DNA from: a virus
Direction: 5' to 3' (one strand)
Virus record (IMG/VR): IMGVR_UViG_3300044259_000094
Span: 1-64,000 of that record
DNA length: 64,000 bases
Shown here: positions 762 through 48,634 of the stretch, piece after piece
Layout of the letters: each line of letters starts with the position of its first letter
Position numbering within the stretch: the stretch's first letter is position 1
The notes under the pieces: generated by a model
Told to the model about the DNA's origin: nothing
Databases searched by the model: none
What the model saw: the letters and a program-made list of their open reading frames with translations, nothing else
Made by a program: the position numbers and the translations under genes

Positions 762-815
762 ATCAGACGTCCTAGTTATTGCAGCGTGTCATTGCTGCGA
801 TTCATCAGAGCGTTG

Positions 816-850
816 ATTCTACGAGCTTTTAGAGAGGGTGTGATTGGCTG
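816..850 (-). promoter_or_regulatory. phage promoter motif (13-nt spacer variant)
   Basis: CAGCCA ATCA CACCCT N13 TAGAAT. Confidence 0.65.
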
Positions 851-870
851 CCAAATGACAGCCAATACAC

Positions 871-1299
871 TCAGATGGACTCTTGCCGATGGGCGCAGAG
901 CTTGACCACACGTTGGCACAGATCAGCATCGAACCAGCTGATGTGACAGCGCCAACGCTCGATGTCGAGTTTGTAAGCGAGCCACTTGTAGGCTTCACCA
1001 CGAGACATCTGCTTTGACTTCCAGATAGGATCGAACGCAGCATGTGCGGCTTTACGAGCAGTTTTGGTCTTCTCGTCAGCCAATGTACCTAACGGATGAG
1101 TGGTGCCGGCATGTACACCGACAGAAGCACCACAAGCCTTATTGGTACACAGGTAGATATAGGGCCAATCGCTGAAAGTCCGGCCGTTGTAAATCTCGGC
1201 GTGAGTCGTGTATTTGACCTCACTGCCGCAGAACCGACACTTTGTAGGAGCCTGCATGATGCTGCGTGGGTCTATCGACTTCTCGACGGACTTGACCAT
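871..1299 (-). CDS. DUF3268-family zinc-finger protein
   Basis: CRFCG...YLC..CGASVGVH.GT..PLGTLAD...AHAAFDPIWK...AYKWLA...CHI.WFD signature. Confidence 0.8.
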   Translation of the reverse strand: MVKSVEKSIDPRSIMQAPTKCRFCGSEVKYTTHAEIYNGRTFSDWPYIYLCTNKACGASVGVHAGTTHPLGTLADEKTKTARKAAHAAFDPIWKSKQMSRGEAYKWLAYKLDIERWRCHISWFDADLCQRVVKLCAHRQESI

Positions 1300-1463
1300 T
1301 ACTCTTCACGCTCAGGCAAACGAACCAGTACACCAATCAGTTCCTGAATGTAGTGATCGGTGCACTGGTCGTACTCTTCGCTTTGGATCGAACCAGGCAT
1401 AGCCTGGAGCGACTGTATGAAAGCCTGCAGCTGTTCTTCGGTGATAACCCGGACCTTAGCCAT
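1299..1463 (-). CDS. small hypothetical protein (54 aa, MAKVRVITEEQL...), not in ORF track
   Basis: Translated by hand; fills the gap exactly with TGATG and TAATG coupling at its ends. Confidence 0.7.
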   Translation of the reverse strand: MAKVRVITEEQLQAFIQSLQAMPGSIQSEEYDQCTDHYIQELIGVLVRLPEREE

Positions 1464-1786
1464 CAGTCGACCTCCTCGTCAGTGAGCAGAATGGCATCAC
1501 CCACGATCACATCACCGATGAACAGGCTATCAGCGGCCAGGCGAGTAGCAACGGCGTTGAATTTCAGGCCGCTGAACTTACCTTCTTCGTTCATACCCAT
1601 GATGCGATAGGTCTGCTGATCCAGAATCACCGGCTTCTTCAAGCGGATGATCTGAATCGGGCCACCCACCAGCTCTTGCATGGCTTTGAGGTGCATACCG
1701 CGATCACCTTCACCCTTGAAGTATTGCGGGTGAGTTTGGATGTTGATCAGAGTGGACTGATCGTTGGTCTTGATATGAACGGCCAT
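1463..1786 (-). CDS. DUF3846-like protein
   Basis: LKAMQELVGGPIQ...MNEEGK...L.FN..AT...IVGDAIL motif. Confidence 0.7.
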   Translation of the reverse strand: MAVHIKTNDQSTLINIQTHPQYFKGEGDRGMHLKAMQELVGGPIQIIRLKKPVILDQQTYRIMGMNEEGKFSGLKFNAVATRLAADSLFIGDVIVGDAILLTDEEVD

Positions 1787-1793
1787 GTGAACC

Positions 1794-1907
1794 TCAGTTG
1801 AATTGGAAGGAACCGCAGGCGAGCATGAAGCCCAGGATGACCAGGAGGATCAAGATGATCGCAAGACCCGGGTCTTTCTCGATGGTGTTGAAGATACGGT
1901 TGATCAT
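1794..1907 (-). CDS. small membrane protein (37 aa, MINRIFNTIEKDPGLAIILILLVILGFMLACGSFQFN), not in ORF track
   Basis: ATGA overlap with upstream stop; one hydrophobic helix. Confidence 0.65.
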   Translation of the reverse strand: MINRIFNTIEKDPGLAIILILLVILGFMLACGSFQFN

Positions 1908-3840: not shown

Positions 3841-3877
3841 AGGTGCTTCCTCTCGCTATGTTGTTGAATCTGCGCTG

Positions 3878-3911
3878 ATTTTACAGCGCAGATATAGGTG
3901 TTATTCGGCTG
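3878..3911 (-). promoter_or_regulatory. phage promoter motif, -10 in hairpin loop
   Basis: CAGCCG AATA ACACCT N12 TAAAAT; 10-bp inverted repeat 3868-3893 flanks the -10. Confidence 0.75.
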
Positions 3912-5743: not shown

Positions 5744-5775
5744 GACTACGGCACTCCTGTTGTTTGCTTGCTTCG

Positions 5776-5809
5776 ATTTTACGCAAAGAGCAAAGGCATC
5801 ACATGGCGC
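5776..5809 (-). promoter_or_regulatory. phage promoter motif
   Basis: GCGCCA TGTG ATGCCT N12 TAAAAT. Confidence 0.75.
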
Positions 5810-5855
5810 CCAGCGTTTGCTGTGACGCTCTGTGATGCGTTTTAAGCGACGTTCG

Positions 5856-6416
5856 CTAGTGAGACTTAGATGCGCTAGCAAGTCGTGCTAACGTCGCAGC
5901 AGCGAGCTGTGAGCGCTTGTCCCGAGCAGCTTCCTCTGAGCGTTCGAAGTAGCTTGCAGAGTCATCGAGCCAGCTGAGGTCAAGATGATAACTGCGGCGA
6001 CTGCGGATAGCGTGGATCTGGAACTGTCGATCGACGTACTCGATAGCCAAATCGAGCGGCCATTGGTTTACAGCAGCCAGTTGGTTGATAGCTCGCATGA
6101 ACTCAGCCTTACCCTGAGTGATAGCGAAGCCAATGTGCTTGACCTTGTGACAATCCGGGCACAGAGCGATCAACCCGGTGAGCCTCTGAATCAAGGCATG
6201 GTCTTCGTAATCCCAGATTTCGTGACACTCGACTGGATGCTTACGCCCACGACCACCGCAGACTTCACAGCGGTGACCTGCTTTTTGGTAGCAAGCCGCG
6301 CGAAGACTGTCCCACTGCACTTTGGTCAGCCGGCTGCGCAGGTTGTCTTCCCACTGCGTGGAAGGGACCAACTCAATGGTCAGCTTGGGTTCCGGGTACG
6401 GATGGAATTGGCTCAT
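5856..6416 (-). CDS. HNH-fold nuclease-like protein
   Basis: CEVCG...ECHEIW...LIALCPDCHKVKH. Confidence 0.75.
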   Translation of the reverse strand: MSQFHPYPEPKLTIELVPSTQWEDNLRSRLTKVQWDSLRAACYQKAGHRCEVCGGRGRKHPVECHEIWDYEDHALIQRLTGLIALCPDCHKVKHIGFAITQGKAEFMRAINQLAAVNQWPLDLAIEYVDRQFQIHAIRSRRSYHLDLSWLDDSASYFERSEEAARDKRSQLAAATLARLASASKSH

Positions 6417-7765: not shown

Positions 7766-7847
7766 GTCATCCACCTAATGATCTGAGTTGGTTATTCTTT
7801 AGGACGCTAAGCAAATCAACTACTTAGCGTCTCTTTGTGTTGCAGCG

Positions 7848-7881
7848 ATAATACACAGCAGTTTTAGGCATAGCGTGGCGA
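7848..7881 (-). promoter_or_regulatory. phage promoter motif
   Basis: TCGCCA CGCT ATGCCT N12 TATTAT; leader hairpin GACGCTAAG/CTTAGCGTC at 7803-7831. Confidence 0.7.
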
Positions 7882-8975: not shown

Positions 8976-9307
8976 TAGTAGTTACTCTGAGTGCAGATGC
9001 CCGGGACGCCCAACAGACGGGAGAACTGTTCTTTGCTTTCGCGGTACTCGTAGCGGGCTTCGACCAATTCCCACTTCTTACCGATCTTGACGTTGCGAGC
9101 TTTGGTACTGGAGCAGGACAGACGTTGCTCTTTCCAAATGTAGCCAAATGGAATCTCACGCAAAGTGACCTTGCTGTTGGACTTGGAGCTGACGCGAACG
9201 CTGACCACTTCAACAGTGATGCGCTTCTCCGAAATCTTGATGGCTTCATCACAGCCAACAAGGGCCATGCTCGCAGCGAGGACGAGAGCTAAACGGTTAA
9301 GCCGCAT
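8975..9307 (-). CDS. putative lipoprotein
   Basis: Signal peptide with LVGC lipobox. Confidence 0.7.
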   Translation of the reverse strand: MRLNRLALVLAASMALVGCDEAIKISEKRITVEVVSVRVSSKSNSKVTLREIPFGYIWKEQRLSCSSTKARNVKIGKKWELVEARYEYRESKEQFSRLLGVPGICTQSNY

Positions 9308-9340
9308 GATGTGTGCTCTATGTTGTTGATATGTGCGCTG

Positions 9341-9374
9341 ATTTTACAGCGCACATTGAGGCAGGAGACGGCTG
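9341..9374 (-). promoter_or_regulatory. phage promoter motif, -10 in hairpin loop
   Basis: CAGCCG TCTC CTGCCT N12 TAAAAT; inverted repeat 9331-9356; near-duplicate of the 3878 element. Confidence 0.75.
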
Positions 9375-10382: not shown

Positions 10383-10406
10383 TTTCTACCTCGCTAATGA
10401 GCTGTG

Positions 10407-10440
10407 ATTATCGCAGTTACTCGTCGGTTTTCGGAGGCTG
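10407..10440 (-). promoter_or_regulatory. phage promoter motif
   Basis: CAGCCT CCGA AAACCG N12 GATAAT. Confidence 0.7.
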
Positions 10441-12614: not shown

Positions 12615-12640
12615 TCCCTACTTTCCTTTGGTCAATAAAA

Positions 12641-12688
12641 ACAGACTGCTCTATTGCTAGAGACAGTCTGTCAGTTTTACGCAGGGAT
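12641..12688 (-). promoter_or_regulatory. partial phage promoter motif with hairpin
   Basis: Distal ATCCCT present, proximal CC absent; TAGCAAT in loop of the ACAGACTG/CAGTCTGT hairpin. Confidence 0.4.
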
Positions 12689-33205: not shown

Positions 33206-33239
33206 ATTAAAGCACTCGCTCACAGGGTTTACGCGGGGT
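33206..33239 (-). promoter_or_regulatory. phage promoter motif, -10 in hairpin loop
   Basis: ACCCCG CGTA AACCCT N12 TTTAAT; imperfect inverted repeat around the -10. Confidence 0.7.
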
Positions 33240-33242
33240 TTG

Positions 33243-36641: not shown

Positions 36642-36643
36642 GG

Positions 36644-37069
36644 TCAGTACCTTAGTAAGATCCTTCCACCTTCCACACTGGCAAGGTTGTTTGTTAACAG
36701 CACACCGACGGTTTCTTTTGCCGTCTGCACAGCCTCATCCTTTTGCCATTTCAGCTTTTGCATGAGGGTTTGAACGAGAACACCCGGCGTGGGGCTCTCC
36801 AACGTCATCAGAATCCCAACAGCTTTTTGCTGTCGAGAGTTCATTGTAGCGACGATGCGCTCGGTAGAGTCAGGTAGTCGCTTCTGTGCCTTCTGTGACG
36901 CGCTGTGAGACATTTTCAGCACCGAGTCGACGCTCACCATTGCTCTGAGTTCCTCGATGCGCTGTAGCGCTGCCAGAGCGCATGACTGGCTCTCGTCACA
37001 CTTGGCACATGCAGGCGACTTGTTGCTGTAGGTGATGGCGTTGCCGTAGCAACCGGGTTTGTCGTACAT
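36644..37069 (-). CDS. Cys-rich N-terminus plus possible winged-helix protein
   Basis: PGCYG...CAKC...C; AGGAG SD. Confidence 0.7.
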   Translation of the reverse strand: MYDKPGCYGNAITYSNKSPACAKCDESQSCALAALQRIEELRAMVSVDSVLKMSHSASQKAQKRLPDSTERIVATMNSRQQKAVGILMTLESPTPGVLVQTLMQKLKWQKDEAVQTAKETVGVLLTNNLASVEGGRILLRY

Positions 37070-37088
37070 CGCCAACTCCTTTCTTTGG

Positions 37089-37119
37089 AAACAAAAAAGC
37101 AGGTCCGAAGACCTGCTTT
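37089..37119 (-). terminator. intrinsic terminator
   Basis: AAAGCAGGTC-TTCG-GACCTGCTTT followed by TTTGTTT. Confidence 0.88.
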
Positions 37120-37138
37120 CGCTAACGAGCTACCGATA

Positions 37139-38386
37139 TTAGCTCAGGATACGCTTCGCAACACCCAGTGCTGCTTCTTTTTCTGCTTCTGGCAGACGGT
37201 TGCAGTAGGCGTACATCGCGCCTTCTACGAAGTCCGCTTTCATCATGCCGATGCGAGCGATGTTGATGGCAACACGCGGGCCGATGGTCAGCGACACGAT
37301 GTTCGGGAACGACTTGTGACGAATCTCGTCGGCGAACTGACGGATCTTCTTCGCGTCGGCCTCGTTCAGACCAGTCGCAGCAGCGATCATGGCGATTTCT
37401 TGCTTCTCTGGTGGGTAGTCCACCATCGCTACGACACCGAAGCGTTCGATGGTCGCGGCGTCCTGGGTCAGCGTTGCTTGGTACAGACCGGACTGGTCAC
37501 CAGTACCGTTCGTGTTACCAGTAGCAGCGAACGTGAACAGCGGGTGAGGCTTGATGACACGCAGGTGCGGCGGAGCGTTCTTGATGATCAGCGGCTCACC
37601 TTCGAGAATCGCCTGGTAGGCCGACAGGACAGTCGGAGACGAACGATCGATTTCGTCAGCGAGGTAGGTCCAGCCGTTCAGCATCGCAGTAGGCAGTGGG
37701 CCGAGTTCGAATTCGGTCACCGATACAGCGTTGCCGTCCGGGTTAACGTGAGGCTTGACGACCCACTGACCGACGATGTGGCTTTCTTCGGTATCGACAG
37801 TGTGCTGGAAGCGGAACAGACGACGATTCAAACCGGCGCACATTTGCTTGAAGATCGAGGACTTGCCCACACCCGAGTGGCCGAACAGGAAGATCGGGGT
37901 ACGCAGTTCCATCGCCATCATGACGGTCTTCGTCAGATCAGGGTTCAGGATGTAGTTGTCGCTCCAGGCCGGGATCATGTGACCGTAATCACCGGAAGCA
38001 GGACGAGCGTCAGCGGTGCAAGGAATGCCCTGGCCCGACTTGGTGTACGCAGACTTCGTGCTTTTCGGGAAGCGGAAGGCTTCGTGGAAGAACACTTTGG
38101 TCAGGTCAGGGTTGCCGGTCTGAGCAGGCTTGGCGCCTTCGGCCGGTGCATTCGCAGCGACTGCGGATTCTTCCGCTTCACGCTTGGCTTTCATTTCGGC
38201 CATCTTCTTCTTGGCCGTTTCGGACAGCAGCTCAGGGCTCTTGCCATCTTCGGTGGCGTAAGTGCTGATGTAGGTTTCCAGATCCATCGGCTGAGCAGAG
38301 TCCTCGCCGTGCGCGGTTTTCAGGTGGTTCGCGATGCTGTGTACTTCTTCACCGCAGATCAGGCACTTGATTTTGTCGTTGCTCAC
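37139..38386 (-). CDS. CobS/CbbQ/MoxR-type AAA+ ATPase with N-terminal C2H2 finger
   Basis: CLIC...HLKTAH; GHSGVGKSS, YLADEID, ATGNT.G.GD..G.Y......A...RF, GPR. Confidence 0.88.
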   Translation of the reverse strand: MSNDKIKCLICGEEVHSIANHLKTAHGEDSAQPMDLETYISTYATEDGKSPELLSETAKKKMAEMKAKREAEESAVAANAPAEGAKPAQTGNPDLTKVFFHEAFRFPKSTKSAYTKSGQGIPCTADARPASGDYGHMIPAWSDNYILNPDLTKTVMMAMELRTPIFLFGHSGVGKSSIFKQMCAGLNRRLFRFQHTVDTEESHIVGQWVVKPHVNPDGNAVSVTEFELGPLPTAMLNGWTYLADEIDRSSPTVLSAYQAILEGEPLIIKNAPPHLRVIKPHPLFTFAATGNTNGTGDQSGLYQATLTQDAATIERFGVVAMVDYPPEKQEIAMIAAATGLNEADAKKIRQFADEIRHKSFPNIVSLTIGPRVAINIARIGMMKADFVEGAMYAYCNRLPEAEKEAALGVAKRILS

Positions 38387-38442
38387 AGGTTGTATCCTTG
38401 TTTACGTTAATTTGTACTGCGTTGTTTTGTTTCAGTGAGCGC

Positions 38443-38476
38443 ATTTTGTACGCTCACTGATGGGCGTTCAATGGGT
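38443..38476 (-). promoter_or_regulatory. phage promoter motif, -10 in hairpin loop
   Basis: ACCCAT TGAA CGCCCA N12 CAAAAT; 10-bp inverted repeat 38432-38460. Confidence 0.65.
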
Positions 38477-38477
38477 T

Positions 38478-40544
38478 TTAGCTGGCCAGCAGCGCGTCCC
38501 GGAGTTGCTTGAGGACGATGCCCGGCAGGTCCGCAACGTTGTCCAGCTTCACGTTTTTACGGTAGAAGTGCTGAACGGAGTTGGACATGATGCCGACGCC
38601 AACAATGTTGGTGCCGTCCTTCTCGATACGCTGGACGACCTTCTTCAAGTGGGCATTCAGCTTGCGGCCATCTACACCACCCGCCGGCTGACCGTCACTG
38701 AATACAATCATCATCTTGCCTTTCTTCTTGCCCTTGTTGGCATGTCGGCACAAGGACTCGTAGGCATACTGCACCGATTCGCCGTCGATGTTCGATGCCA
38801 TCGAGGACTGGACGTGTGCATACGACGCCATACGCTTCTTGACCTCGATGGAGAACTTCTCCTGGAAGGTCTTGAACATCGGCAGCATGAGAGGCTCACA
38901 GCGGTCGAAGTGTTTGCCGGCGTTGTAAGCGTCCTGCATTTCGCGATACAGGTCTTGCGAGCGATTACTGCCGAGATAACCGGTAGTGAAGCCCATGATT
39001 TCGCAATCAACACCCAGGCGGCCGAGTACGTCTGCAAGCACCCACGCAGCGCACATTGCGGTGTGGATCTTCGAACCGCCCATCGAACCCGAACAGTCGA
39101 TCACCAACGACACTGCGATTTCGCGGGTCTTGTGTTCGATCTTATTCTTGTAGATATGATCGTCGCCGGCGGTCAGACGATACAGGTTGTTCGAGGACAG
39201 CTTGCCCTTGCGCAGACCCTGCTGGGTGAGCGACTTGTTCCGGGCTGCGAACGCACGTTCGAGTTGGCGTGCAACCGGGCCAACCATACCAGCGATGGAG
39301 TTTTCGAGGTCGTCCATCCACTTGGGACTGTAGGACGATGGGATTTTTGGCGGTTCGAGAATGTCCCACTCACGGGTGAACACCGTGTATTCCTCGTCTT
39401 CCATTTCGGTAGAGCAGAGGTCAGACACGTATTGACCGAACTCGGTGCCGATATCCTGCACCTTGTCCCAGTCAAAGTTCTTCATGTAGTTGGCGCCACC
39501 GTATTCGGACTGAGCCGATTCGGTGTCTTCGGTCGCTTTGTCGCGCTCGCTTTGCTTGGACTGACCGTCAGCACCTACAGCGGCGTCTTCTTTGCGAGGG
39601 TCTTTGTCGCCGGCTTCGTCTTCGGACTCGTCGCCTTCGTCGTCGCCGTCAGCAGCGTCGTCGGCTTCATCGTCCTCTTCCGCTTCTTCGTCACCAGGCG
39701 CACCGCCACCACCAGCTTCGTCTTCTTCCTCTTCTTCCTCTTCGCCTTCGAGGTCGCCGGCACCTTTACCCTTGTTCGCTTCGGGCTTACCGCCACCGCC
39801 CTTACCCTTGCTTTTACCGCCACCGCCACCCCCGCCACCTTTGCCTTTCTTGCTAGGGTCTTCGTCACCGTAAGGGTTGTCGCCATCACCTTCTGGCGGC
39901 TCACCCATTACGATGTTGCGAATTTCCTTCGCCATGTCGTAGCAGTCGGACGCTTTGGTCATGGACTGCATCTTCTTCTGGATAGGCTCCAGCTGTTTCT
40001 GAATGCCGGCGATCAGCGACCACTTGTCGCTCATGTAATCCTGGAAGAACTTCTGACCGCCCCAGGCACGCAGCGCAGGCACTGCGAGAACTTGGAACAG
40101 CTCTTGCTCTTCCGCGCCGTTTGCGAGCGCTTCTTTCAAGCGAGGCGTGATGAACTTGTCCACGAAGGTCTGGTGCATGTTCGCCAGGTTATGACGAGAG
40201 CCAGAGAAGTTCTTCACCATTTCCTTCTCGCAGAAGAAGGATTCGAGCGGGTTGTACAGAGAAGCCATGTTCTCGTGCGCCGCTCGCAAGTTGGACTTGC
40301 CGTCAGCGTACAGAACTTTGGAGATTTCGCTGTCAAGGAAGCCCTGTACCGCTTCGATCAGCTCTTCGCTGGCATCGTCAGGGATCATAGGCAAGTTGAC
40401 GCGAGTGGCCTTCATGGTGCGTTCGTCGTACTTGACGAAGGCTTTGACGCCGGACTGGGTTACGAGAACTTTGCCATCAGAGAGGATCTGAGCAATCTTG
40501 GTGATTGCCTCCCTCATGATGACGATGCGTTGAGTGCGATCCAT
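38478..40544 (-). CDS. CobT-like vWA-domain protein
   Basis: Gly/acidic linker; C-terminal vWA with DCSGS MIDAS, N.DGE, SDGQP, VGVGI. Confidence 0.88.
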   Translation of the reverse strand: MDRTQRIVIMREAITKIAQILSDGKVLVTQSGVKAFVKYDERTMKATRVNLPMIPDDASEELIEAVQGFLDSEISKVLYADGKSNLRAAHENMASLYNPLESFFCEKEMVKNFSGSRHNLANMHQTFVDKFITPRLKEALANGAEEQELFQVLAVPALRAWGGQKFFQDYMSDKWSLIAGIQKQLEPIQKKMQSMTKASDCYDMAKEIRNIVMGEPPEGDGDNPYGDEDPSKKGKGGGGGGGGKSKGKGGGGKPEANKGKGAGDLEGEEEEEEEDEAGGGGAPGDEEAEEDDEADDAADGDDEGDESEDEAGDKDPRKEDAAVGADGQSKQSERDKATEDTESAQSEYGGANYMKNFDWDKVQDIGTEFGQYVSDLCSTEMEDEEYTVFTREWDILEPPKIPSSYSPKWMDDLENSIAGMVGPVARQLERAFAARNKSLTQQGLRKGKLSSNNLYRLTAGDDHIYKNKIEHKTREIAVSLVIDCSGSMGGSKIHTAMCAAWVLADVLGRLGVDCEIMGFTTGYLGSNRSQDLYREMQDAYNAGKHFDRCEPLMLPMFKTFQEKFSIEVKKRMASYAHVQSSMASNIDGESVQYAYESLCRHANKGKKKGKMMIVFSDGQPAGGVDGRKLNAHLKKVVQRIEKDGTNIVGVGIMSNSVQHFYRKNVKLDNVADLPGIVLKQLRDALLAS

Positions 40545-40594
40545 GTTTCCAACCTGTGTTAATGGACTGTTAGTTGCGCTTTGCTACTGCGCAC

Positions 40595-40628
40595 ATTATG
40601 CAGAAATGAAACTGGGAGCTTTCGGCTC
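40595..40628 (-). promoter_or_regulatory. phage promoter motif overlapping a terminator hairpin
   Basis: GAGCCG AAAG CTCCCA N12 CATAAT. Confidence 0.7.
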
Positions 40629-40633
40629 CCAGT
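40604..40633 (-). terminator. intrinsic terminator after ligase
   Basis: ACTGGGAGC-CGAAA-GCTCCCAGT followed by TTCATTT. Confidence 0.7.
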
Positions 40634-40642
40634 GAGGTAGTT

Positions 40643-42058
40643 TCACTTGATAGCGTTCTCGAATTGGCGCTCGACCTCAGCGAAGCTGTCGGCGAACTGC
40701 TTGTCGAAACGGCGCTCAACGAAGATCGGCAGGAACAGGCTGTGTTCGATCTTGCCGCGCTTGGCGTACATGATTTCGTTGGCCTTGACGGTGATGATTG
40801 CGCCGATCCAATCCCAACGGTTCTCGTTGATTTCACGGCGCTGTTCATCGGTGAAGCCGGAGCCTACGTTGACTTTCAACATGCCGCAGGACGTCTTGCA
40901 CTTGAGTGAGCCGAAGGTATCAGCGGTCTTGCCACCTTCCTTGCCCTCTTCGAAGTCATAGACTTCCAGCTCGACAGGCACTTCCTGCTTGAGCTTCACC
41001 TGATCTTTGGAAGTACCGTCCTTCCAGATCTTGCCAGGCTTCTTGGCGATCGTACCTTCAAGCTTGCGCCGACGAGCATCGTAGTAATGCTCCATCGCCT
41101 CTTCGTAGCTACGGACGACCCGGGTTTCGATGACGCTGATGGGATGATTCAAACGCTTGGCTTGAACCAAGCTGATTGCGGCGTTCAGCGTGCGCAGGCG
41201 CGTCACATAAGGCTGATCAAACTGGCCCTTCTTGACCGCTTTGTCTTTGGGGATGACATCCCACAGAACTGCGGATAGCTCGTAACCTTTCGGCAGTAGT
41301 GTGCCTTTGATCAGCTTGTTGATCAGGCCGTTGCCTACTTCGCGAGCGCAGACATTACCTTCTGAGTCGAGGACAAGCAGCTCGCCGTGAGTGTTCAGAC
41401 CGTTGGCGAACTCAGGGTGACTGGTCAGTAGAGGCTTGAAGGTCTCGTAGAACGCTTCCATAAGCCCTTCGAAGCCTTCTGTTGGGAACGGCTGACCCTG
41501 GCGACTGGTGAAGCTGACCAATGTAGGCTCAACAATGCCGTTGAAGAACATGCCATCAGCTTTGATCTGGCTGATTACACCTGTTGCCCAGGGCCAGGCT
41601 TCGAAGTCTACGTCCTTCGGCAGAGAGCAGCGCTCGTAAGGTGAAGAAGGGATGAAGTCCTTGCTGACCTTGTTGATGGAGTTCTCAGTGAAGCCGGCCT
41701 TCATATCCTTGTTCAGGACACGCCACAGCAACTCGGCCGAACGAACATCAAGTGCCGAATACTGATCGCCGATGGCGGACAGCGCTGCGTTGCCGGTGAG
41801 CTTGCGAGTGGCAAGGTCGTCAAGCATCTGCCAAGTTTCGTCTGTCCAGACACCGGTGTACATCGGATGATCCGGGCAATGCTCACCGGTGAAACGCGCT
41901 GGGCGAACACCAAAGGTAATGAACGGGCTGTAGGCGTACAGCATGGTCTTACCGAACTGGCTATCTTCCATAGCCAGGCTGAGGAACGCTTGCTTGTCGT
42001 TCTTACCAGGAGTCAGCGCGATTGAGCTGATACATTCCATGATTTGATTGGAGTTCAT
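40643..42058 (-). CDS. ATP-dependent DNA ligase
   Basis: KADG motif I, SRQG, HGELL, WD, LEG...K, KLK, VGSGFTD, SLFLP.F...RFDK. Confidence 0.92.
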   Translation of the reverse strand: MNSNQIMECISSIALTPGKNDKQAFLSLAMEDSQFGKTMLYAYSPFITFGVRPARFTGEHCPDHPMYTGVWTDETWQMLDDLATRKLTGNAALSAIGDQYSALDVRSAELLWRVLNKDMKAGFTENSINKVSKDFIPSSPYERCSLPKDVDFEAWPWATGVISQIKADGMFFNGIVEPTLVSFTSRQGQPFPTEGFEGLMEAFYETFKPLLTSHPEFANGLNTHGELLVLDSEGNVCAREVGNGLINKLIKGTLLPKGYELSAVLWDVIPKDKAVKKGQFDQPYVTRLRTLNAAISLVQAKRLNHPISVIETRVVRSYEEAMEHYYDARRRKLEGTIAKKPGKIWKDGTSKDQVKLKQEVPVELEVYDFEEGKEGGKTADTFGSLKCKTSCGMLKVNVGSGFTDEQRREINENRWDWIGAIITVKANEIMYAKRGKIEHSLFLPIFVERRFDKQFADSFAEVERQFENAIK

Positions 42059-42723
42059 TTGCCCGCCTTGAGTTTCATTGCGGCCCGACGCTTGATGAAG
42101 TCCGCAGTGGACTCACCTGGCAGTGGACGAGTGGATGATTGATCAGCTGCTGGGGTTGCAGCGACAGTAGGAGTAGGTGCCGCCTTGTTCTCTGCGTGCT
42201 CTTTCATAAGCACGTTGACTACATCGGCCATACCCTCTTCAACAAACCCGGACTTCTTGATCGGGCCAATGTTGCGAGTGGGTCGTGGAGCTTGACGCTT
42301 TGGAATAGGCTTGTCAGTGCTGTAGCCTTCACGACCGCCGATAGCCCAACCGCGTGCGTAGCTCGGGTTCGACATATCGTATTTGCCGCTGCTTACTGCG
42401 CCATCGACAGCTGCTTGCTTCTTAGCAGACTCGTACACATGACGAGGGCGCTCCTTGAAGTACAGAGCGTGACCGGCTTTACGCTCTTCCTCCCGCATAC
42501 CCTTTGCGGGGCAAGTGTTATGGCAGTAGTAGCGCTGGCAGTCGGTGAACTGATCGCGAGCCAAACGATCTTCTTCGATGGCCTTGAGCGTGTGCAGGCA
42601 TACAGCGTAGTTCACCTGCTGCTGGCGAGCGTCACAGAACTGGTAGAAGGCGTTGCGGCCGCTCATGCTTGCCTCTACGGGGAGGATAGCAATCAGCTCC
42701 GGGTCTTCTTTGACTTCGGACAT
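42055..42723 (-). CDS. hypothetical protein with Cys cluster
   Basis: Start moved to MSEVKE downstream of promoter 42756. Confidence 0.7.
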   Translation of the reverse strand: MSEVKEDPELIAILPVEASMSGRNAFYQFCDARQQQVNYAVCLHTLKAIEEDRLARDQFTDCQRYYCHNTCPAKGMREEERKAGHALYFKERPRHVYESAKKQAAVDGAVSSGKYDMSNPSYARGWAIGGREGYSTDKPIPKRQAPRPTRNIGPIKKSGFVEEGMADVVNVLMKEHAENKAAPTPTVAATPAADQSSTRPLPGESTADFIKRRAAMKLKAGK

Positions 42724-42755
42724 TGGGAGACTCTCTCGTTTGTTGTCGCGCTTGC

Positions 42756-42789
42756 ATGATACAAGCGCGCTGGAGGGCTTATACGGCGT
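42756..42789 (-). promoter_or_regulatory. phage promoter motif, -10 in hairpin loop
   Basis: ACGCCG TATA AGCCCT N12 TATCAT; CGCGCTTG/CAAGCGCG inverted repeat. Confidence 0.75.
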
Positions 42790-42791
42790 TC

Positions 42792-43565
42792 TTATGCGAA
42801 CCCACCCCAACCGCTACCGTAGACCTCTTCGCGATCAATAACGGGCACTGGGGTCTTTGGAGCGACTGGTGGTTTGCCCTTCTGAGCGCCGAACATCATG
42901 GCTGTCATGGCTGACACGATGTCCTGGCTGACACGATCCTTTGGCGCCAATTCCATTTCAGATTGAATCGATAGACCCTTACCTTCGAGGAAGGTGATGA
43001 AGTCTGCAGTTGGGAAGATGTCTTCGGCGATCGCCTTACCAATCAGAGTACCAATCTTGGATTCGGTACCCATCTGGATAAGACTGGCAGCTTGAGCTGG
43101 GCAGAACCCCATAGCCGGCAGTCTGCCGGCGTCTTCATCGGCGAGAACGTCGTAAACGAACTGGTGATTTGAGTCGATTGGAATGTATCGACCAATGTAC
43201 TGCTCGATCTTGTAGTCCTTGCCCACAGCCTTCGACTTGACTACGCCGTACCACTCCTTCTCGCTCACAATCTTGGCTTGAGCTTGACCCTTTACGCCGA
43301 GATTCTTGCCCCACCAGGTTACGGATATACCGGTAGAGCCAGACTTGTTCAAAGCGATGAACATGGACTTCCAGATCTTGCCTTCCGGGTGATGACAGGA
43401 CACGAACGACGAGCTGTAGACCGCGCCACTGGTTTCAGAAATGGCGGTGAACGAATCAGCCAGAGATTGCCGGCCGGCGTTGTCGTAAGTGGGCCAGGCT
43501 ACCCTGTGAGACACGGTTTCAAGGCTAAGATTCGTGGTAGAAAAGGGAGTGAATGGGATGGTCAT
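42792..43565 (-). CDS. protein with WGR-like segment, ending in WGGFA tag
   Basis: K.W......VTWWGK..G..GQ.........KSK..KDY resembles a WGR domain. Confidence 0.7.
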   Translation of the reverse strand: MTIPFTPFSTTNLSLETVSHRVAWPTYDNAGRQSLADSFTAISETSGAVYSSSFVSCHHPEGKIWKSMFIALNKSGSTGISVTWWGKNLGVKGQAQAKIVSEKEWYGVVKSKAVGKDYKIEQYIGRYIPIDSNHQFVYDVLADEDAGRLPAMGFCPAQAASLIQMGTESKIGTLIGKAIAEDIFPTADFITFLEGKGLSIQSEMELAPKDRVSQDIVSAMTAMMFGAQKGKPPVAPKTPVPVIDREEVYGSGWGGFA

Positions 43566-43590
43566 GTGATCTGCCTATGAATGTGCGCTT

Positions 43591-44697
43591 TCAAAGTGTG
43601 AATTTTGACATCACAGATGCGGCATAGAGCGGGGTAAGCTCTTTAGCCTTTACGAATGCCTGTCGTACTACTTCGGTTTCTACTTCGTTGGGGTCTTTGT
43701 CCAACGGCAGGATTGCCAGCTTTACTTTGAACCCGAAGGTTCTCAGCTTAACGCCGGTCTTCACAGCGTTCAGGATTGCACTGGGTGATCCGTCCCACAT
43801 CATGGTGATTTCACGGAGACCCTTCTCTCGCATCGCTTTGAGGTCGCTAAGCTGATCCTTCTCACCGCCAGACTCGGCGATAGAAAGGTGCATACCGAAT
43901 GTCCCGCAGATACCCACATCCTTGAAGGTGATGTCCTCGTCGAACGCCTTCTTGATTGCGGCTACGTCAAACACGCCCTCCCCCAAAACAAGCTCTGACA
44001 ATCCTAGGGAATTGTGGGCGTTGTATATAAAACGACCAGCTCCAGCTAACCCAGGTGGGAACAGGTACTTCTGGAATGGGTTTGCTTCTATGCTTCGACC
44101 CTGGAACGTAACGAGCTGTCCGTCGATGCCATATACAGGAATGACAACTCGGTTTGCCCAGTCCTGAGACTTCTCTTCGCCGCCTAACGTGTAGCTGTAG
44201 GTTCCGGTCTTGCTGAATCGCCAACCAAAATACTCGGCAAGGTCAGGGCCAAACCCACGATCAGAAAGGTACTTGAGAGTTTTGCCGTTGATTGGCAGAG
44301 GGTAGCTGTCCGGGATCACAATTTCATCCGGGTTCTCGTCAGCTGGTCTTGGGGCGCGTTTGCGGGTTGCTGTCCACCCAAGAGTCTTGGCGTATCGCTT
44401 GAGATTCTGGATCGTCTCGCGATGGCTCTTGTCGTTACGGTGGAACATATAGCTGTACTTGTTGAAGCCTGGCTCACCTGAGCATGACCCATGAAAGCAA
44501 CTACCCAAACCTGTCTCAGCGTTTAGGTAGACCTTCCAGCCAGTACCCCCACAACGGGGGCACTCTTTAAGGTTCAACTGTGTACCGGATCGCCCGCGAG
44601 TGACCCGGTAGTCGATGCTTTCAAAGCTCAGGAAGTCTTCCATGTCGACCAGATCGAGCAGGTCTTCAATCTCGGAATCATCCTTTGCTTTGGTCAT
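43591..44697 (-). CDS. DNA primase (zinc finger plus TOPRIM)
   Basis: CPRC...CFHGSC, FQGR, EGVFD, MMWDG, KDPNE. Confidence 0.88.
   Translation of the reverse strand: MTKAKDDSEIEDLLDLVDMEDFLSFESIDYRVTRGRSGTQLNLKECPRCGGTGWKVYLNAETGLGSCFHGSCSGEPGFNKYSYMFHRNDKSHRETIQNLKRYAKTLGWTATRKRAPRPADENPDEIVIPDSYPLPINGKTLKYLSDRGFGPDLAEYFGWRFSKTGTYSYTLGGEEKSQDWANRVVIPVYGIDGQLVTFQGRSIEANPFQKYLFPPGLAGAGRFIYNAHNSLGLSELVLGEGVFDVAAIKKAFDEDITFKDVGICGTFGMHLSIAESGGEKDQLSDLKAMREKGLREITMMWDGSPSAILNAVKTGVKLRTFGFKVKLAILPLDKDPNEVETEVVRQAFVKAKELTPLYAASVMSKFTL
43602..43635 (-). promoter_or_regulatory. phage promoter motif inside the primase 3' end
   Basis: ACCCCG CTCT ATGCCG N12 CAAAAT. Confidence 0.65.
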
Positions 44698-44698
44698 G

Positions 44699-44956
44699 TT
44701 AGTGCGCCTGGGCCAGGGCCTCTGGGTGGTCGTGAATAGTTGCCAGCAGAAGCTTCATGACCGGCTCGTCCTCACGAACAGAGGCGTTGCTGCCGCCGCG
44801 AGCGATGCGGCCGTCCATGTACTTCACAGCGGCCGAATCGTCACCGAAAGCCAGACGAGCAAACTCGCGCCAGTTTTCGTTGGTGCTTTTCATACCGTTG
44901 CTCAGCTTTTTGGGCTTGTGGACAACGATGTCGAACTTTGCTTTTTTCTTGGCCAT
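44699..44956 (-). CDS. hypothetical protein
   Basis: GAGGAG SD. Confidence 0.7.
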   Translation of the reverse strand: MAKKKAKFDIVVHKPKKLSNGMKSTNENWREFARLAFGDDSAAVKYMDGRIARGGSNASVREDEPVMKLLLATIHDHPEALAQAH

Positions 44957-44959
44957 GAC

Positions 44960-45166
44960 TTACTCCTCGCTATACAGATCGATGCCGGCCGCTTTCAGAT
45001 CGAGGTCGTCAGGCAGAGTCAGAGTGCGAGAGTAGCCTTCGTTCATACCGAACCATTCAGGCTGTTCCTCGCACAGGCGATCCAGAAGATCGTAATCGGT
45101 GGTGAAACGCACAGCTGAGCTGCCGTCACCCAAGTCTTCCGCGAACAGATAAACTTTTTGAGCCAT
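44960..45166 (-). CDS. small acidic hypothetical protein
   Basis: AAGGA SD, TGATG coupling. Confidence 0.7.
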   Translation of the reverse strand: MAQKVYLFAEDLGDGSSAVRFTTDYDLLDRLCEEQPEWFGMNEGYSRTLTLPDDLDLKAAGIDLYSEE

Positions 45167-45612
45167 CAGATTTTCCTTACGTTTGCTTTGTTCAGCTCAG
45201 CATATGCGAGTTGAACTGGGGTGTAATAGGGTTTCGACAGTACCACTTCGGCTTCTTCGACTGTCATTCCCGTGTGATGGGCCATGAACTCCGCATAGCT
45301 GGAGAAACAAGTCTCATGGTCCGGTTCGTGGGTGAGCAGTGTATCCCAAGCCTTGCCAGTTCCACGCTTCTCATTCATGCCGAGATTCGCACGGAACGTG
45401 GCAGTACCTGCACACTGCGGCGTCTGACCTGGGCCGGCTTTCAGCTTCCATTCCGGGTCGTTGAAGTCGCAGTGGAGGTGACAAGGGATCGAGAACGGTG
45501 CATACACTTGACCGATATACACCGTCACATCGCTGCCACCCAAAGCACCAGGTTCACACTTGCGGTTGAATACGCACTCTGCGCAGGCTTTCTTTGGGTT
45601 GCGGCAGCTCAT
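45166..45612 (-). CDS. Cys/His-rich metal-binding protein
   Basis: CAECVF...CH...CAG. Confidence 0.7.
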   Translation of the reverse strand: MSCRNPKKACAECVFNRKCEPGALGGSDVTVYIGQVYAPFSIPCHLHCDFNDPEWKLKAGPGQTPQCAGTATFRANLGMNEKRGTGKAWDTLLTHEPDHETCFSSYAEFMAHHTGMTVEEAEVVLSKPYYTPVQLAYAELNKANVRKI

Positions 45613-45965
45613 ATCATTTGGCCGAAACGTTTCTTGTGACCCAGGTGACGAGTCTGGATAGGGATGGTCGACTGAGGTCTTGGTTTGAACCAGCCGATGT
45701 AGGTGAGCTGCTCGATGAACAGAGAGCCGTTGGTTCGATACTGCGGCGAAAGATCCTTGATCATGTTCGGAACAAGAGCCTTCTTGAGGTTGCGATGAAA
45801 CGCAAGCTCATTACGGTCAGTAACGCTCATGGTCATTGAGTTGGTCACATAGCCCGTATTTGGGACACCCGGGTTCATGTTGTAGCGGAACGTCACATGA
45901 TAGTTCCAGGTACGACCAGTGAGCTTGTGAATCAGCTTGTCGAAGGAGAACTTTGGTAGCTTCAT
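45609..45965 (-). CDS. hypothetical protein
   Basis: Coupled ORF. Confidence 0.7.
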   Translation of the reverse strand: MKLPKFSFDKLIHKLTGRTWNYHVTFRYNMNPGVPNTGYVTNSMTMSVTDRNELAFHRNLKKALVPNMIKDLSPQYRTNGSLFIEQLTYIGWFKPRPQSTIPIQTRHLGHKKRFGQMI

Positions 45966-46318
45966 CAGAAGTGTTGCTCCATATCTTCGAGTGGAATCAG
46001 ATCGCTTTCGTTCGCGGTAGAGGCGCGTTCAGCAATCGCTTCATCCGGGAACATGCTGTTGACCTGCGAAATGGTTGGGTCGATCAGCTTGCGAACGGTT
46101 TCTTCGGTCAGGCCATCGAACGCCTTTTCAGCGTCGTCCCAGCCCTGATCGCTGTCCTTGAAGGAGGTGATCAGTTGAGTGATGCCGAACATCTGGTTGC
46201 CGGTCATGAAGCTGAAACGCAACTCCGGGCCTGAGCGGGTTTCAGCGTCGCTCTCGTCAAGGACAACGAGAACCTGGCCGATGTCGTCAAAGCGGAACAG
46301 CTTGGCGAAGTCTTTCAT
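45965..46318 (-). CDS. hypothetical protein
   Basis: Coupled ORF; FAKLF....IGQVLV. Confidence 0.7.
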   Translation of the reverse strand: MKDFAKLFRFDDIGQVLVVLDESDAETRSGPELRFSFMTGNQMFGITQLITSFKDSDQGWDDAEKAFDGLTEETVRKLIDPTISQVNSMFPDEAIAERASTANESDLIPLEDMEQHF

Positions 46319-46611
46319 TTTTCATCCTTTTGTGCGGCACGCAGAAGGCATACCTTGTTCTCGCTGCTGCCATCGAAAGCGCAGTAGGCGTCGATAGGAT
46401 TGGAGCCAGCTTTGATAGCCGCTTCCATCTTGGCGTTTGCATCCAGGTTGTAGGAGGTGACACCCCAGGCGATCGAGCCAACGATCGCTACAACGGACAA
46501 GCAGGCGATGATCTTGGTCATCTCCTCCCAGTCGATCACAAAGGGGTGCTTCTCGACGGTGTGAGTGTGGTAGTTGTTTACCACGCCTTCTTTCGGTGCT
46601 TCGTCGCTCAT
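46315..46611 (-). CDS. membrane-anchored protein
   Basis: Central TM helix; start moved to MSDEAP with GAGG SD. Confidence 0.7.
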   Translation of the reverse strand: MSDEAPKEGVVNNYHTHTVEKHPFVIDWEEMTKIIACLSVVAIVGSIAWGVTSYNLDANAKMEAAIKAGSNPIDAYCAFDGSSENKVCLLRAAQKDEK

Positions 46612-46646
46612 TACGTTTCCTCTATGAATGAAAAGACTCAAGCGCG

Positions 46647-46680
46647 AGATTACACGCTTGAGTCTGGGGTGTAGCGGGTT
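46647..46680 (-). promoter_or_regulatory. phage promoter motif, -10 in hairpin loop
   Basis: AACCCG CTAC ACCCCA N12 TAATCT; 11-bp inverted repeat AGACTCAAGCG/CGCTTGAGTCT. Confidence 0.75.
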
Positions 46681-46683
46681 TGA

Positions 46684-47088
46684 TCAGTCTGCCCAAATAG
46701 CGTTCGGATCTACCCAGTCCGGGTCTTTCTCGAAGCTCACATCCACGCTCTCGCTGTAGTAACCATTGGACTCACCCAGCCAGCGAATGACCACGAACCC
46801 ATGTTCGGTAGCAAGCCTGTAAAAAGTCCAGGTGGAAGTTCCATAATTCTCTTCATCACCAGACTGGGACGACTCTTCTGCGAGGACGAGAGGCCCATAA
46901 CCAATGAGGTCACCAATATCGCCCTCAACATCCGAAACCGATACAGACTCACAGCAATCCTGCTCGTGATGCATACGAATAACCAAACCGTCACTGGTGT
47001 GGATTCTGATTTCCTCACTGTCCTTACTCGCTCCGTCAATCTTGACGATGGTTTTACCTACAAGGTCTTCAAACTTCATTCGTTCCAT
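46684..47088 (-). CDS. DUF7448-like phage protein
   Basis: HEQDCCESV...TWTFY.LAT..G.V.IRWLGESNGYYSESV. Confidence 0.75.
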   Translation of the reverse strand: MERMKFEDLVGKTIVKIDGASKDSEEIRIHTSDGLVIRMHHEQDCCESVSVSDVEGDIGDLIGYGPLVLAEESSQSGDEENYGTSTWTFYRLATEHGFVVIRWLGESNGYYSESVDVSFEKDPDWVDPNAIWAD

Positions 47089-48560
47089 TAGCTAATCTCC
47101 AAGATGCCAGTCATGAACCGCATCTTGCTCAAGTCCTGGCTGATTTTGAGGGTGAATTCACCAGCTTGGTTCCGGGATGCTGCGAAGTAAAGGCGAGCTT
47201 CACCTTTGGCCTTCTCTTCATCCGTGCGGTTGATGGTCAACACCAAGTCGGCGATGCGGATTTTGTTGAAGTCTTCTGCGGCGTGCTCTGCTTTCGCTAC
47301 GTCAGCAGTGAAGCCGGCACGGTTCGTCTGTGTTGCGGTCAGTACAGCGGCGTTCTCTTCGTGGGCGATTGCACGCAGACCCAACCAGACCTGCTTGGAC
47401 TCGTTGATGTCGTTACCCGATTTGATTTCGGCCGCCATGATGTCGGCGTAGTCGACTACGATCAGGTCGAAGATGATGCCTTGTGCGCGGTAGAACTCGA
47501 TGACTTTGCGCAGGTCTGCACAGGTCATTGTACCCGATGGATACTCAACGACTTTCAAGACGCCAGGCTTACGCATGGATGCCCGATTCTTGACGCCCTT
47601 CTCGACTTCGTTACCCTTGGCTGCCAAGTCAGCCATATCAACGCCGGACACGTTTGCGTCCATACGTTCCATGATGATCTTGGCTGCTACTTCGAGGGTG
47701 ACATACAGCACGTTGTAGCCGGCGCTAGAAGAAGCGATTGCCCAGTGAAGCAAGCCAGTGGACTTACCCTTCTTGGCACCACCCATGACAACGGACAGTT
47801 CCTTTCGGCCCCATCCATCGTGGTACAGCATCTTGTTCAGTTTCGGCAGACCCGTGGTCACACCGTCTTTCTTAATCAGACCGGCTTCAACGTCACGACG
47901 GTACTGAGTACGGGACTCGATGCTGTTCCAGTAGTCGTTGTCTTGAACCACAGCCTGCGCGCCTGTAGCAAACGCCTTCTGCATGATTTTTTCGGCTTTC
48001 GCATGTTCTCCCTTCTCCACAAGCGGGATGGTCATCATGTAAGCCGCGCTGATTGCTTGCTTCTTGGCGAACTCAGCAACCTTATCTACAGCGTAGTCAC
48101 GGCTCGGCAGACCCTCTTTCAGGATTTTCTTGAGAGCGACGACCATATCCGGGACGTCATCGTCACGAATCGCCTTCTCTGCTTTCGCATCCTTGATCAG
48201 CTCTGCCCACTCGCCGCGCTCGGGTAGACGACGGTACTTCTCATGATAGGTTTGGCTGATGTGAACCAGTGCCGACAGACTGCGGTCTTCGAAGTATTCA
48301 GGTTTGACCAACCCGTCTACGCGACGATAGAAAGCTTCATCGCGTAGGGTCAGTGCCGCGATCTTCTGTTGGAAGTCTGCTTCGAATTGGAAAGCCTCAG
48401 CACCCTCTTCCAGGGTTGGGAGCGGCTTGATCCGGGTGCTCATTTGCATGACGGTTTCGATTTCGTCATCCAATTCTTCGTCTGGCTCGGGTTCGACCAT
48501 GCCCATCTGTCTCGCCAATTGATCGGCGAGACTATTCTTAATTTCGGATTCGTCAGACAT
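47088..48560 (-). CDS. DnaB-like (SF4) replicative helicase
   Basis: GGAKKGKS, YVTLE, IVVDYAD, TATQTNR; start moved to MSDESE. Confidence 0.9.
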   Translation of the reverse strand: MSDESEIKNSLADQLARQMGMVEPEPDEELDDEIETVMQMSTRIKPLPTLEEGAEAFQFEADFQQKIAALTLRDEAFYRRVDGLVKPEYFEDRSLSALVHISQTYHEKYRRLPERGEWAELIKDAKAEKAIRDDDVPDMVVALKKILKEGLPSRDYAVDKVAEFAKKQAISAAYMMTIPLVEKGEHAKAEKIMQKAFATGAQAVVQDNDYWNSIESRTQYRRDVEAGLIKKDGVTTGLPKLNKMLYHDGWGRKELSVVMGGAKKGKSTGLLHWAIASSSAGYNVLYVTLEVAAKIIMERMDANVSGVDMADLAAKGNEVEKGVKNRASMRKPGVLKVVEYPSGTMTCADLRKVIEFYRAQGIIFDLIVVDYADIMAAEIKSGNDINESKQVWLGLRAIAHEENAAVLTATQTNRAGFTADVAKAEHAAEDFNKIRIADLVLTINRTDEEKAKGEARLYFAASRNQAGEFTLKISQDLSKMRFMTGILEIS

Positions 48561-48600
48561 TGTTGGCCCTTTGGGGTGATTTGTGCGTTGCAGCACTCGA

Positions 48601-48634
48601 AGTATACGCGCTGCGAAGTGGGGTAAAACTAGCT
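48601..48634 (-). promoter_or_regulatory. phage promoter motif (distal CC absent)
   Basis: ACCCCA N12 TATACT. Confidence 0.6.

Follow-up and report, generated by a model that had tools for sequence, protein, structure and literature searches.

Depletion of the dinucleotides CC and GG around a predicted promoter class in a phage contig related to Nickievirus

The window analysed here is a stretch of 64,000 nt, bases 1–64,000 of the 95,733-base viral contig IMGVR_UViG_3300044259_000094 (IMG/VR; linear, 85% complete). By DNA identity the contig is kin to the genus Nickievirus, whose members nickie, phiK7B1, ZY21 and Nican01, all siphoviruses of Pseudomonas syringae, share ~80% identity with it, and hairong, of the same genus, ~78%. 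Nearly all window genes, which were called by a heuristic of this analysis (starts without a bonus for ribosome sites), are carried by the minus strand, and ~70% of genes have no known function. The general theme of the identifiable genes is replication, recombination and nucleotide metabolism: they specify a DnaE polymerase fused to a uracil-DNA glycosylase (UDG) domain, CobT/CobS-like ATPases, a ligase, a DnaB-like helicase, an SbcC-like protein and NrdA, and are joined by the beginning of the tail region. The window also contains ~22 predicted early/middle promoters on the minus strand, composed of a -10 hexamer (TAnnnT) and two C-tracts and lacking a -35 hexamer, and it is the near absence of CC and GG around these sites that is described below.

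In the RNA sense the promoters are laid out as (A)AACCCC-N7-xCC-N13-TAnnnT, and they occur in intergenic DNA, exclusively on the coding strand. At 14 of the 22 sites the first CC/GG met on going upstream is a CC at a distance of exactly 13 nt from the hexamer, and the second C-tract follows 10–11 nt beyond it, placing the tracts (about -27/-26 and -38) roughly one turn of the helix from each other. Three sets of sites were used: the 22 hand-curated sites of this contig, a set defined independently of the CC/GG-free runs (motif CC-N8-10-YC-N13-hexamer, intergenic, with a gene within 120 nt; n = 13 here) and a pooled set of 53 sites from this contig, nickie and hairong. The hexamer consensus of the pooled sites is TAtAAT, of which only the inner A (0.6–0.9 bit) counts as independent support because the selection pattern itself prescribed the first two positions and the last. 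No conserved letters were seen at the expected place of a -35 hexamer in the pooled consensus, and no canonical -35/-10 pair was found in nt 33,000–49,600 of the window (16.6 kb), against 6.8 ± 2.5 in shuffles. We infer that the sites are promoters used by the host polymerase, with transcription assumed to begin ~7 nt past the hexamer.

The preliminary description of this DNA listed eleven runs without CC or GG directly downstream of the proximal CC. All eleven are free of both dinucleotides, their real limits being 1–3 nt wider than listed, and 19 of the 22 predicted promoters lie within runs of at least 40 nt, as had been claimed for most of them, while such runs span 2.6% of the genome. The two exceptions named there, at 21834 and 49468, are real and have a CC 7–8 nt from the -10. 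A lone run of 40–65 nt is not rare, as first-order Markov copies of the genome hold ~112 runs of at least 40 nt and the genome itself only 42; the signal is therefore the placement of the runs. At the run-independent promoters, the 20 nt past the hexamer contained 2 CC/GG where 27.8 were expected (nickie, 7 versus 42.9; hairong, 4 versus 37.4), and the 13-nt spacer contained 3 where 17.1 were expected (nickie, 5 versus 24.5; hairong, 11 versus 28.3). None of 2000 shuffles reached the observed counts in any of the three genomes. The GC content of the tested promoter windows is 46–51%, so AT-richness is not the cause of the depletion; full explanation by local AT content, which the preliminary description had named as grounds for refutation, did not hold. 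Elsewhere in non-coding DNA the observed/expected ratio is 0.86–0.92, and intergenic stretches of the late region contain both CC and GG (by eye). Past the hexamer of the 22 curated sites, CC was found 0 times against 26.4 expected and GG twice against 17.1.

A second test made no use of gene calls: matches to the motif that were followed by at least 20 clean nt were counted on each strand, random positions giving 1.4–5.0. On the coding strand these were 15 of 31 matches in this contig, 18 of 38 in nickie, 23 of 34 in hairong and 29 of 51 in a 108-kb environmental relative (G003), and on the opposite strand 0/23, 1/17, 3/22 and 2/30, respectively. The promoter class was not found by this test in a distant relative (G001; strand counts 0/15 and 1/25). 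In the pooled profile CC is confined to the two positioned tracts, and GG is missing from ~28 nt before the hexamer onward, i.e. from about -40 to +15. Counted from the first base of the hexamer, CC and GG are both near zero between -12 and +27 and return to normal past ~+28. The cleared core would thus run from about -24 to +15 if the start lies ~7 nt past the hexamer, often extending to the start codon. Together with the absence of GG from -40, this roughly matches the footprint commonly ascribed to RNA polymerase. The zone had originally been described as covering the -10 and the leader; clearing at the -10 is borne out, and the core is shorter than the whole leader because the profile is normal past ~+28.

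The cleared DNA has little sequence in common. Information in the spacer and past the hexamer is ~0.1 bit per position (range 0.0–0.3, with one position at 0.6), and promoters within a genome share 29–30% pairwise identity in these regions. Orthologous leaders, such as that upstream of cobS, are almost wholly rewritten among the three phages yet remain free of CC/GG up to the ribosome site. The depletion is, on these three grounds, a rule and not a shared consensus. Chance, local composition or descent from duplicated promoter cassettes could be proposed instead, given the frequency of runs in the Markov copies and the fact that the promoters at 3878 and 9341 are near-copies of one another. 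This explanation is refuted by the shuffles in three genomes (at 46–50% GC), the low identity between promoters and the opposite-strand control, and practically no probability attaches to it.

Many of the sites also carry a GC-rich inverted repeat with the hexamer in its loop (20 of the 53 pooled sites, about 40%; z below -2, down to -9). Its pairing is kept in orthologues by compensatory changes while the letters differ, and a T-run after some of the hairpins makes a terminator overlap with the next promoter. Examples of such hairpin promoters in the window lie at 46634–46665, 38420–38460 and 19440–19480. The hairpins were considered as a cause of the clearing and rejected, since the sites without an inverted repeat are cleared too.

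Clearing extends to the ribosome sites. Of 52 promoter-proximal genes, 25 have no GG between -18 and -4, compared with 54 of 354 other genes (odds ratio 5.1, p = 4e-7), and such genes use GAGAG or CGAGAG. It had been noted before that GAGAG or AGAG replaces GGAGG at five starts, all of which do have GAGAG, AGAG or GAGA; the accompanying proposal, that the exclusion wins over the Shine-Dalgarno sequence, is confirmed by the counts, from which it follows that the usual ribosome site is overridden.

The pattern might instead arise from intrinsic mechanics, with CC/GG hindering melting, escape or early elongation at strong promoters without a -35, or with leaders being kept unstructured and free of GGA on account of CsrA/RsmA-type repressors. 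The cleared zone does match the usual open-complex footprint plus leader, the leaders are rich in A and C (35% and 27%), and half of the promoter-proximal genes are GG-free at the ribosome site. Initial transcribed sequences, e.g. that of T5 N25 as against N25anti, strongly influence promoter escape: as in the present case, sequence from +1 to ~+20 matters for output, and the good N25 variant also reads GAGAGAGGAG. No CC/GG rule is known for N25, however, whereas the present phages follow one in whole genes and in the spacer, which is not transcribed. In nearest-neighbour tables the GC and CG steps give a more stable duplex than GG/CC, yet these stabler steps are enriched in the cleared zone (22 curated sites; GC about two-fold, CG about 1.3-fold). 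Moreover, CC on the RNA strand is excluded as strictly as GG, other non-coding DNA is undepleted, and the same rule is followed by the intragenic islands and whole coding sequences described next. Mechanics of this kind are an unlikely explanation.

Islands of 68–181 nt without CC/GG also occur inside window genes (Table 1), and relatives carry islands in the same genes. Synonymous resampling, with the protein sequence and phage codon usage held (5000 resamples), rejected amino-acid composition as their cause; the islands are synonymous recoding.

A far longer example is found in the relatives, as a single CC/GG-free tract of 876–1490 nt with ~46% GC that is present in all five sequenced relatives and in five further viral contigs. 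The tract holds an immediate-early cassette, in which a sigma-70 promoter close to the consensus (TTGCAC-N16-TAGAAT) and a CGAGAG ribosome site are accompanied by two or three genes; their proteins contain no Gly, Pro or Trp. Among the non-coding stretches of these genomes, several of those densest in CC/GG border the cassette, GG-rich upstream and CC-rich downstream. Just past the cassette are direct repeats of AACCCCTTACACAACC, three in nickie and one exact copy in four other relatives, which are built like the upstream element of the promoters. The cassette is absent from the present contig, whose end, aligned to nickie, falls near the end of the tract; other assemblies extend past this point. 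The AACCCCTTACACAACC repeat was likewise not found in this contig, and a search of viral contigs for a conserved cassette boundary motif matched nickie alone. Distant homologues of the first cassette gene (29–34% identity) lie in partly depleted DNA. The promoter class was found in four of four tested genomes with a fully cleared cassette, and is absent from the one distant relative with a partly depleted cassette.

Table 1. Coordinates of CC/GG-free runs over predicted promoters, intragenic islands, and cassettes of relatives with their flanks (window numbering unless an accession or contig is given)
Feature	Coordinates (strand)	Length	-10 hexamer or location	Remarks
Run	772–836 (-)	65 nt	TAGAAT 816–821	
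Run	3850–3897 (-)	48 nt	TAAAAT 3878–3883	-10 within 8-bp inverted repeat; run stops at GAGAGG ribosome site
Run	5757–5795 (-)	39 nt	TAAAAT 5776–5781	
Run	7803–7867 (-)	65 nt	TATTAT 7848–7853	
Run	9303–9360 (-)	58 nt	TAAAAT 9341–9346	-10 in hairpin loop; AGAG ahead of ATG 9307
Run	10390–10426 (-)	37 nt	GATAAT 10407–10412	
Run	12631–12684 (-)	54 nt	-10-like AGCAAT	in loop of hairpin with T-run; least certain promoter
Run	16177–16224 (-)	48 nt	CAAAAT 16215–16220	three further runs downstream, 16012–16175, with just three CC/GG
Run	19409–19476 (-)	68 nt	TACTAT 19457–19462	AACCCC-N7-CCC-N13-TACTAT; -10 in 11-bp hairpin; GAGAG ahead of ATG 19413
Run	21809–21846 (-)	38 nt	TACAAT 21834–21839	shorter run; exception, CCC in spacer
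Run	27551–27595 (-)	45 nt	TAAGCT 27576–27581	GAGAG ahead of ATG 27548
Run	31152–31210 (-)	59 nt	TAGAAT 31179–31184	
Run	33171–33225 (-)	55 nt	TTTAAT 33206–33211	AACCCC-N7-CCC-N13-TTTAAT; -10 in hairpin; GAGA ahead of ATG 33166
Run	36817–36863 (-)	47 nt	TACAAT 36843–36848	
Run	38397–38462 (-)	66 nt	CAAAAT 38443–38448	-10 in 12-bp hairpin; hairpin and cleared leader kept in nickie and hairong orthologues, letters differ
Run	40565–40614 (-)	50 nt	CATAAT 40595–40600	directly past terminator hairpin
Run	42727–42772 (-)	46 nt	TATCAT 42756–42761	-10 in hairpin; GAGAGAG ahead of ATG 42723
Run	46620–46666 (-)	47 nt	TAATCT 46647–46652	-10 in loop of 13-bp hairpin, then T-run; terminator/promoter overlap
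Run	48576–48620 (-)	45 nt	TATACT 48601–48606	one C-tract upstream
Run	49442–49481 (-)	40 nt	TACAAT 49468–49473	23% GC; exception, CC in spacer
Island	50701–50881 (-)	181 nt	start of spanin-like gene	0 CC/GG versus 19.0 expected (minimum 6 in 5000 resamples)
Island	25257–25408 (-)	109 + 43 nt	SbcC-like gene	0 versus 11.9 expected, 36 codons; island in nickie and hairong orthologues
Island	5811–5921 (-)	111 nt	end of HNH-like gene	adjoins promoter 5776 on its upstream side; conserved in nickie and hairong, letters diverged
Island	36057–36211 (-)	56 + 68 nt	dnaE	longer run 0 versus 5.7 expected, P = 0.001
Cassette	NC_042091 103938–105074			
Cassette	OM223115 103086–104210			
Cassette	L007 1629–2736			
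Cassette	L008 1581–2695			
Cassette	L009 1583–2665			
Cassette	L012, L013, L015, L016, L017			876-nt run of L017 interrupted by one CC/GG in gene
CC/GG-dense flanks	NC_042091 103462–103581, 105142–105261			
CC/GG-dense flank	OM223115 102418–102658			
CC/GG-dense flank	L012 1–560			

The first cassette protein, gpA (gp019 of nickie), has 184 amino acids, and its predicted structure (predicted local distance difference test score, pLDDT, 95) consists of a long helical hairpin followed by a winged-helix-like domain. Residues ~100–184 of the model align to the winged-helix proteins TubR, ArsR/AntR, SarA and MarR with Z-scores of 7.5–8.6 and a root-mean-square deviation of 2.2–2.9 Å over 72–76 residues, scores that are middling, and likeness of fold alone shows no function. 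The model of the second protein, gpB, is poor (pLDDT 65). Neither gpA nor gpB matched a Pfam or PHROG family, the gpA profile had no sequence match in the PDB, and in a protein atlas both fell in unnamed clusters only, below 0.9. Ten early proteins of this contig likewise matched no Pfam family. With its predicted winged helix, gpA is the best candidate for a reader of the C-tracts.

The preliminary description went on to unite the exclusion, the phased CC pairs and the islands in one system in which CC/GG is marked or bound across the genome. The positioned CC in 14 of 22 sites and the recoding of the islands (0 versus 19.0 and 11.9 expected) speak for a connection among the three; the marking did not find such support. 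A covalent mark would be a modified base or backbone at CC/GG, from which promoter cores, the cassette and some islands are kept free, with marked C-tracts serving for recognition. Features in its favour are that the exclusion is strand-symmetric and absolute across 1.1–1.5 kb in ten relatives, acts on DNA that the promoter does not transcribe (the spacer) and forces synonymous recoding, and that so many genes are without known function. An enzyme responsible, it had been said, may lie elsewhere in the genome. Searches by known families, beyond whose reach unfamiliar enzymes fall, found no methyltransferase of PF01555 or PF00145 (N4/N6 and C5) in the whole contig, nickie or hairong, and no TGT/DpdA (PF01702) in these three or G003; control genomes were matched in each case. 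The nickie gene product annotated as a DNA methyltransferase (gp158; G000 84019–84711 (-), equal to L010 8019–8711) is a 230-aa ParB-like domain protein without a methyltransferase domain, and ThyA scores as a plain thymidylate synthase. In addition, if polymerase elongates through marked genes, there is no need for the coding sequence of the cassette to be blank. A covalent mark therefore seems distinctly improbable. The gene block that contains gp158 also encodes another ParB-like protein as well as two ATPases of the ABC type.

The transcription machinery was searched for in the same way. Sigma-70 region 2 was not found in this contig, nickie, hairong or G003, although control genomes were matched, and the annotations of the relatives include no phage RNA polymerase. 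A giant open reading frame (ORF; 3774–4012 residues) was considered as an N4-like virion polymerase and rejected, as it specifies a tail protein. Without a phage sigma factor of this family, and with the giant ORF accounted for, host polymerase plus a phage factor is the simplest reading.

The occurrence of the same rule in related phages points to some factor that reads the CC/GG step. Our preferred explanation, which is held tentatively, invokes a DNA-binding protein of the phage as reader of the C-tracts, and selection against all other CC/GG within the polymerase footprint. The runs would then mark DNA covered by RNA polymerase at a phage-specific promoter class, where the phage-made protein would bind the two C-tracts and recruit host sigma-70 polymerase. 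Since the word of such a reader would be very short, any other CC (GG on the opposite strand) in the footprint would be disfavoured, and clearing would keep the reader from binding out of register or at places that polymerase has to bind and melt. Where leaders are short, clearing would spread over the ribosome site, with GAGAG as the fallback. No covalent mark would be necessary, and the reader could be gpA, the predicted winged-helix product of the immediate-early cassette; both that a reader exists and which protein it is are points we infer. This explanation is favoured because it agrees with the constant geometry, the lack of a -35, the strand-specific upstream CC, the early DNA-binding candidate and the co-occurrence of cassette and promoter class across genomes.

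Several observations weigh against it. Winged-helix proteins usually read more than two bases, which makes an effect of a lone CC/GG puzzling, and exclusion is no less strict for GG, in which the word is inverted, than for CC. In coding DNA, CC pairs spaced 10–11 nt apart show a weak dip at most (0.85–0.98) and no clear avoidance. The fold match of gpA has the limits given above, its gene is absent from this contig, and the genome without the promoter class is a single case and so a weak support for the linkage to the cassette. A reader of C-tracts also leaves unexplained why its own 1.1-kb cassette has zero CC/GG, coding sequence included, and why there are recoded islands within sbcC, dnaE and the gene for the spanin.

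Because of these last two gaps, something broader may be at work. In a dinucleotide-level system, a factor (protein coat or covalent mark) would act at every CC/GG on double-stranded DNA; the blanks would be promoter contact zones (~20–30), the cassette and the recoded stretches, and the two C-tracts would be the recognition signal. This is rather unlikely, and the binding or marking of every CC/GG in the genome is pure conjecture. The version in which CC/GG is bound has one plausible candidate, the winged-helix early protein modelled from the relatives.

Evasion of host defences must also be considered, since type I-F CRISPR-Cas uses CC as its protospacer-adjacent motif (PAM) and CC/GG is part of many restriction sites, so that these words might be removed where hits cost most, as they are from the DNA of T5 that enters first. 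Genome-wide, CC/GG is below expectation (observed/expected 0.82 in this contig, 0.80 in nickie, 0.75 in hairong), and several longer words are clearly avoided in the contig: CTGAAG (1 versus 82 expected), GGWCC (63 versus 181), GTGCAC (2 versus 36), GCATGC (2 versus 37), GAGATC (2 versus 31) and CTAG (120 versus 322), in a manner that looks like ordinary restriction-site avoidance. Depletion of the CC PAM has been described in P. aeruginosa phages (PMC12174588), host defences are effective against T5 only with sites in first-step-transfer DNA (PMC10644984), and Nican01 has long terminal repeats, as T5 does (PMC11256456). The immediate-early cassette is well suited to this explanation. However, PAM-free patches of 40 nt would be useless with ~11,500 CC/GG remaining elsewhere, the positioned CC at -27 is itself a PAM for the promoter core, and a geometry fixed to the -10 is left unexplained; a literature look-up on I-F systems gave nothing specific to P. 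syringae. Defence evasion is accordingly rated as very improbable for the promoter zones.

Motif avoidance in phage genomes, both of restriction sites (PMC4246573) and of PAMs (type I-F CC, P. aeruginosa phages, PMC12174588), resembles the present case in that a short word is disfavoured on both strands, the word is the I-F PAM and the genome-wide ratio is ~0.8. It differs in being genome-wide and statistical, whereas the exclusion here is local, near-absolute and in register with promoters, and the same word is required at two fixed positions. A likeness to the first-step-transfer (pre-early) DNA of T5 (PMC10644984) can be seen in the cassette of the relatives, siphoviruses of 112 kb whose genomes have long terminal repeats (PMC11256456): it is an immediate-early unit with a near-consensus sigma-70 promoter and is free of the target word. 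Unlike that DNA it is ~1.1 kb and not 10 kb in size and lies outside the window, and the likeness covers the cassette, and neither the promoter zones, nor two-step injection, nor a position at the entering end.

Among regulated promoters, the closest parallels are those served by lambda CII (TTGC-N6-TTGC straddling the -35) and T4 MotA (box at -30, acting with AsiA), activators at promoters without a -35. As in both, the predicted promoters have a sigma-70-type -10, no usable -35 and a short upstream element at a fixed distance, and are predicted to serve genes expressed after the first phase; as for CII, the element comprises two direct half-sites about the -35 position, with a spacing of one helical turn. 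The element here differs in consisting of two bare C-tracts, with the -10 in a hairpin loop at about 40% of sites. No homologue of CII, MotA or AsiA was detected by Pfam among gpA, gpB and the ten early proteins, the part of the proteome that was scanned. By analogy, the class would work like CII- or MotA-dependent promoters and is not a member of either by homology. To our knowledge, no dinucleotide exclusion zone over the polymerase footprint has been described for the CII or MotA systems, and we know of no description elsewhere of a near-absolute, local dinucleotide avoidance tied to promoter geometry. An inverted repeat at the promoter, with compensatory changes in the present case, is shared with the early promoters of phage N4; the hairpin promoters of N4 serve a virion RNA polymerase, whereas here the loop is a -10-like hexamer and a hairpin is found at 20 of 53 sites.

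If a factor does read CC/GG, these phages would have a new way to tell regulatory DNA apart, the signal being the absence of a two-letter step, and this absence would take precedence over ribosome sites, over codon choice and even over the amino acids glycine, proline and tryptophan. A directly testable promoter class, with a candidate early regulator, would also become available for P. syringae phages under development for biocontrol, and CC/GG-free tracts would be a simple signature of first-expressed genes and promoters in uncultured phages. Experiments are feasible with the isolated relatives nickie, phiK7B1, ZY21, hairong and Nican01.

A further compositional feature is the hexamer AGCGCT, which is 2.1–2.4-fold over-represented in the contig and its relatives (2.4-fold being one figure). 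About one third of its copies lie inside CC/GG-free runs, which span 2.6–5.8% of the genome, and the nickie cassette has 11 copies compared with ~2.6 expected from its dinucleotide make-up (a hand estimate). It may be a positive signal or a by-product.

Three gene products of the window have unusual architectures. The DNA polymerase III alpha subunit (DnaE, nt 33,243–36,641 (-)) carries a C-terminal domain of the uracil-DNA glycosylase superfamily at residues 981–1110. The giant ORF (nt 52,616–64,000 (-), continuing to 64,654; ~4012 codons) contains tail-protein, tail-tip-fibre and carbohydrate-binding domains, and the region aligned to it in nickie is occupied by several separate tail genes. 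Finally, the C-terminal half of the ORF at nt 31,225–31,761 (-) is an extreme low-complexity tract rich in Ser, Cys and Asp.

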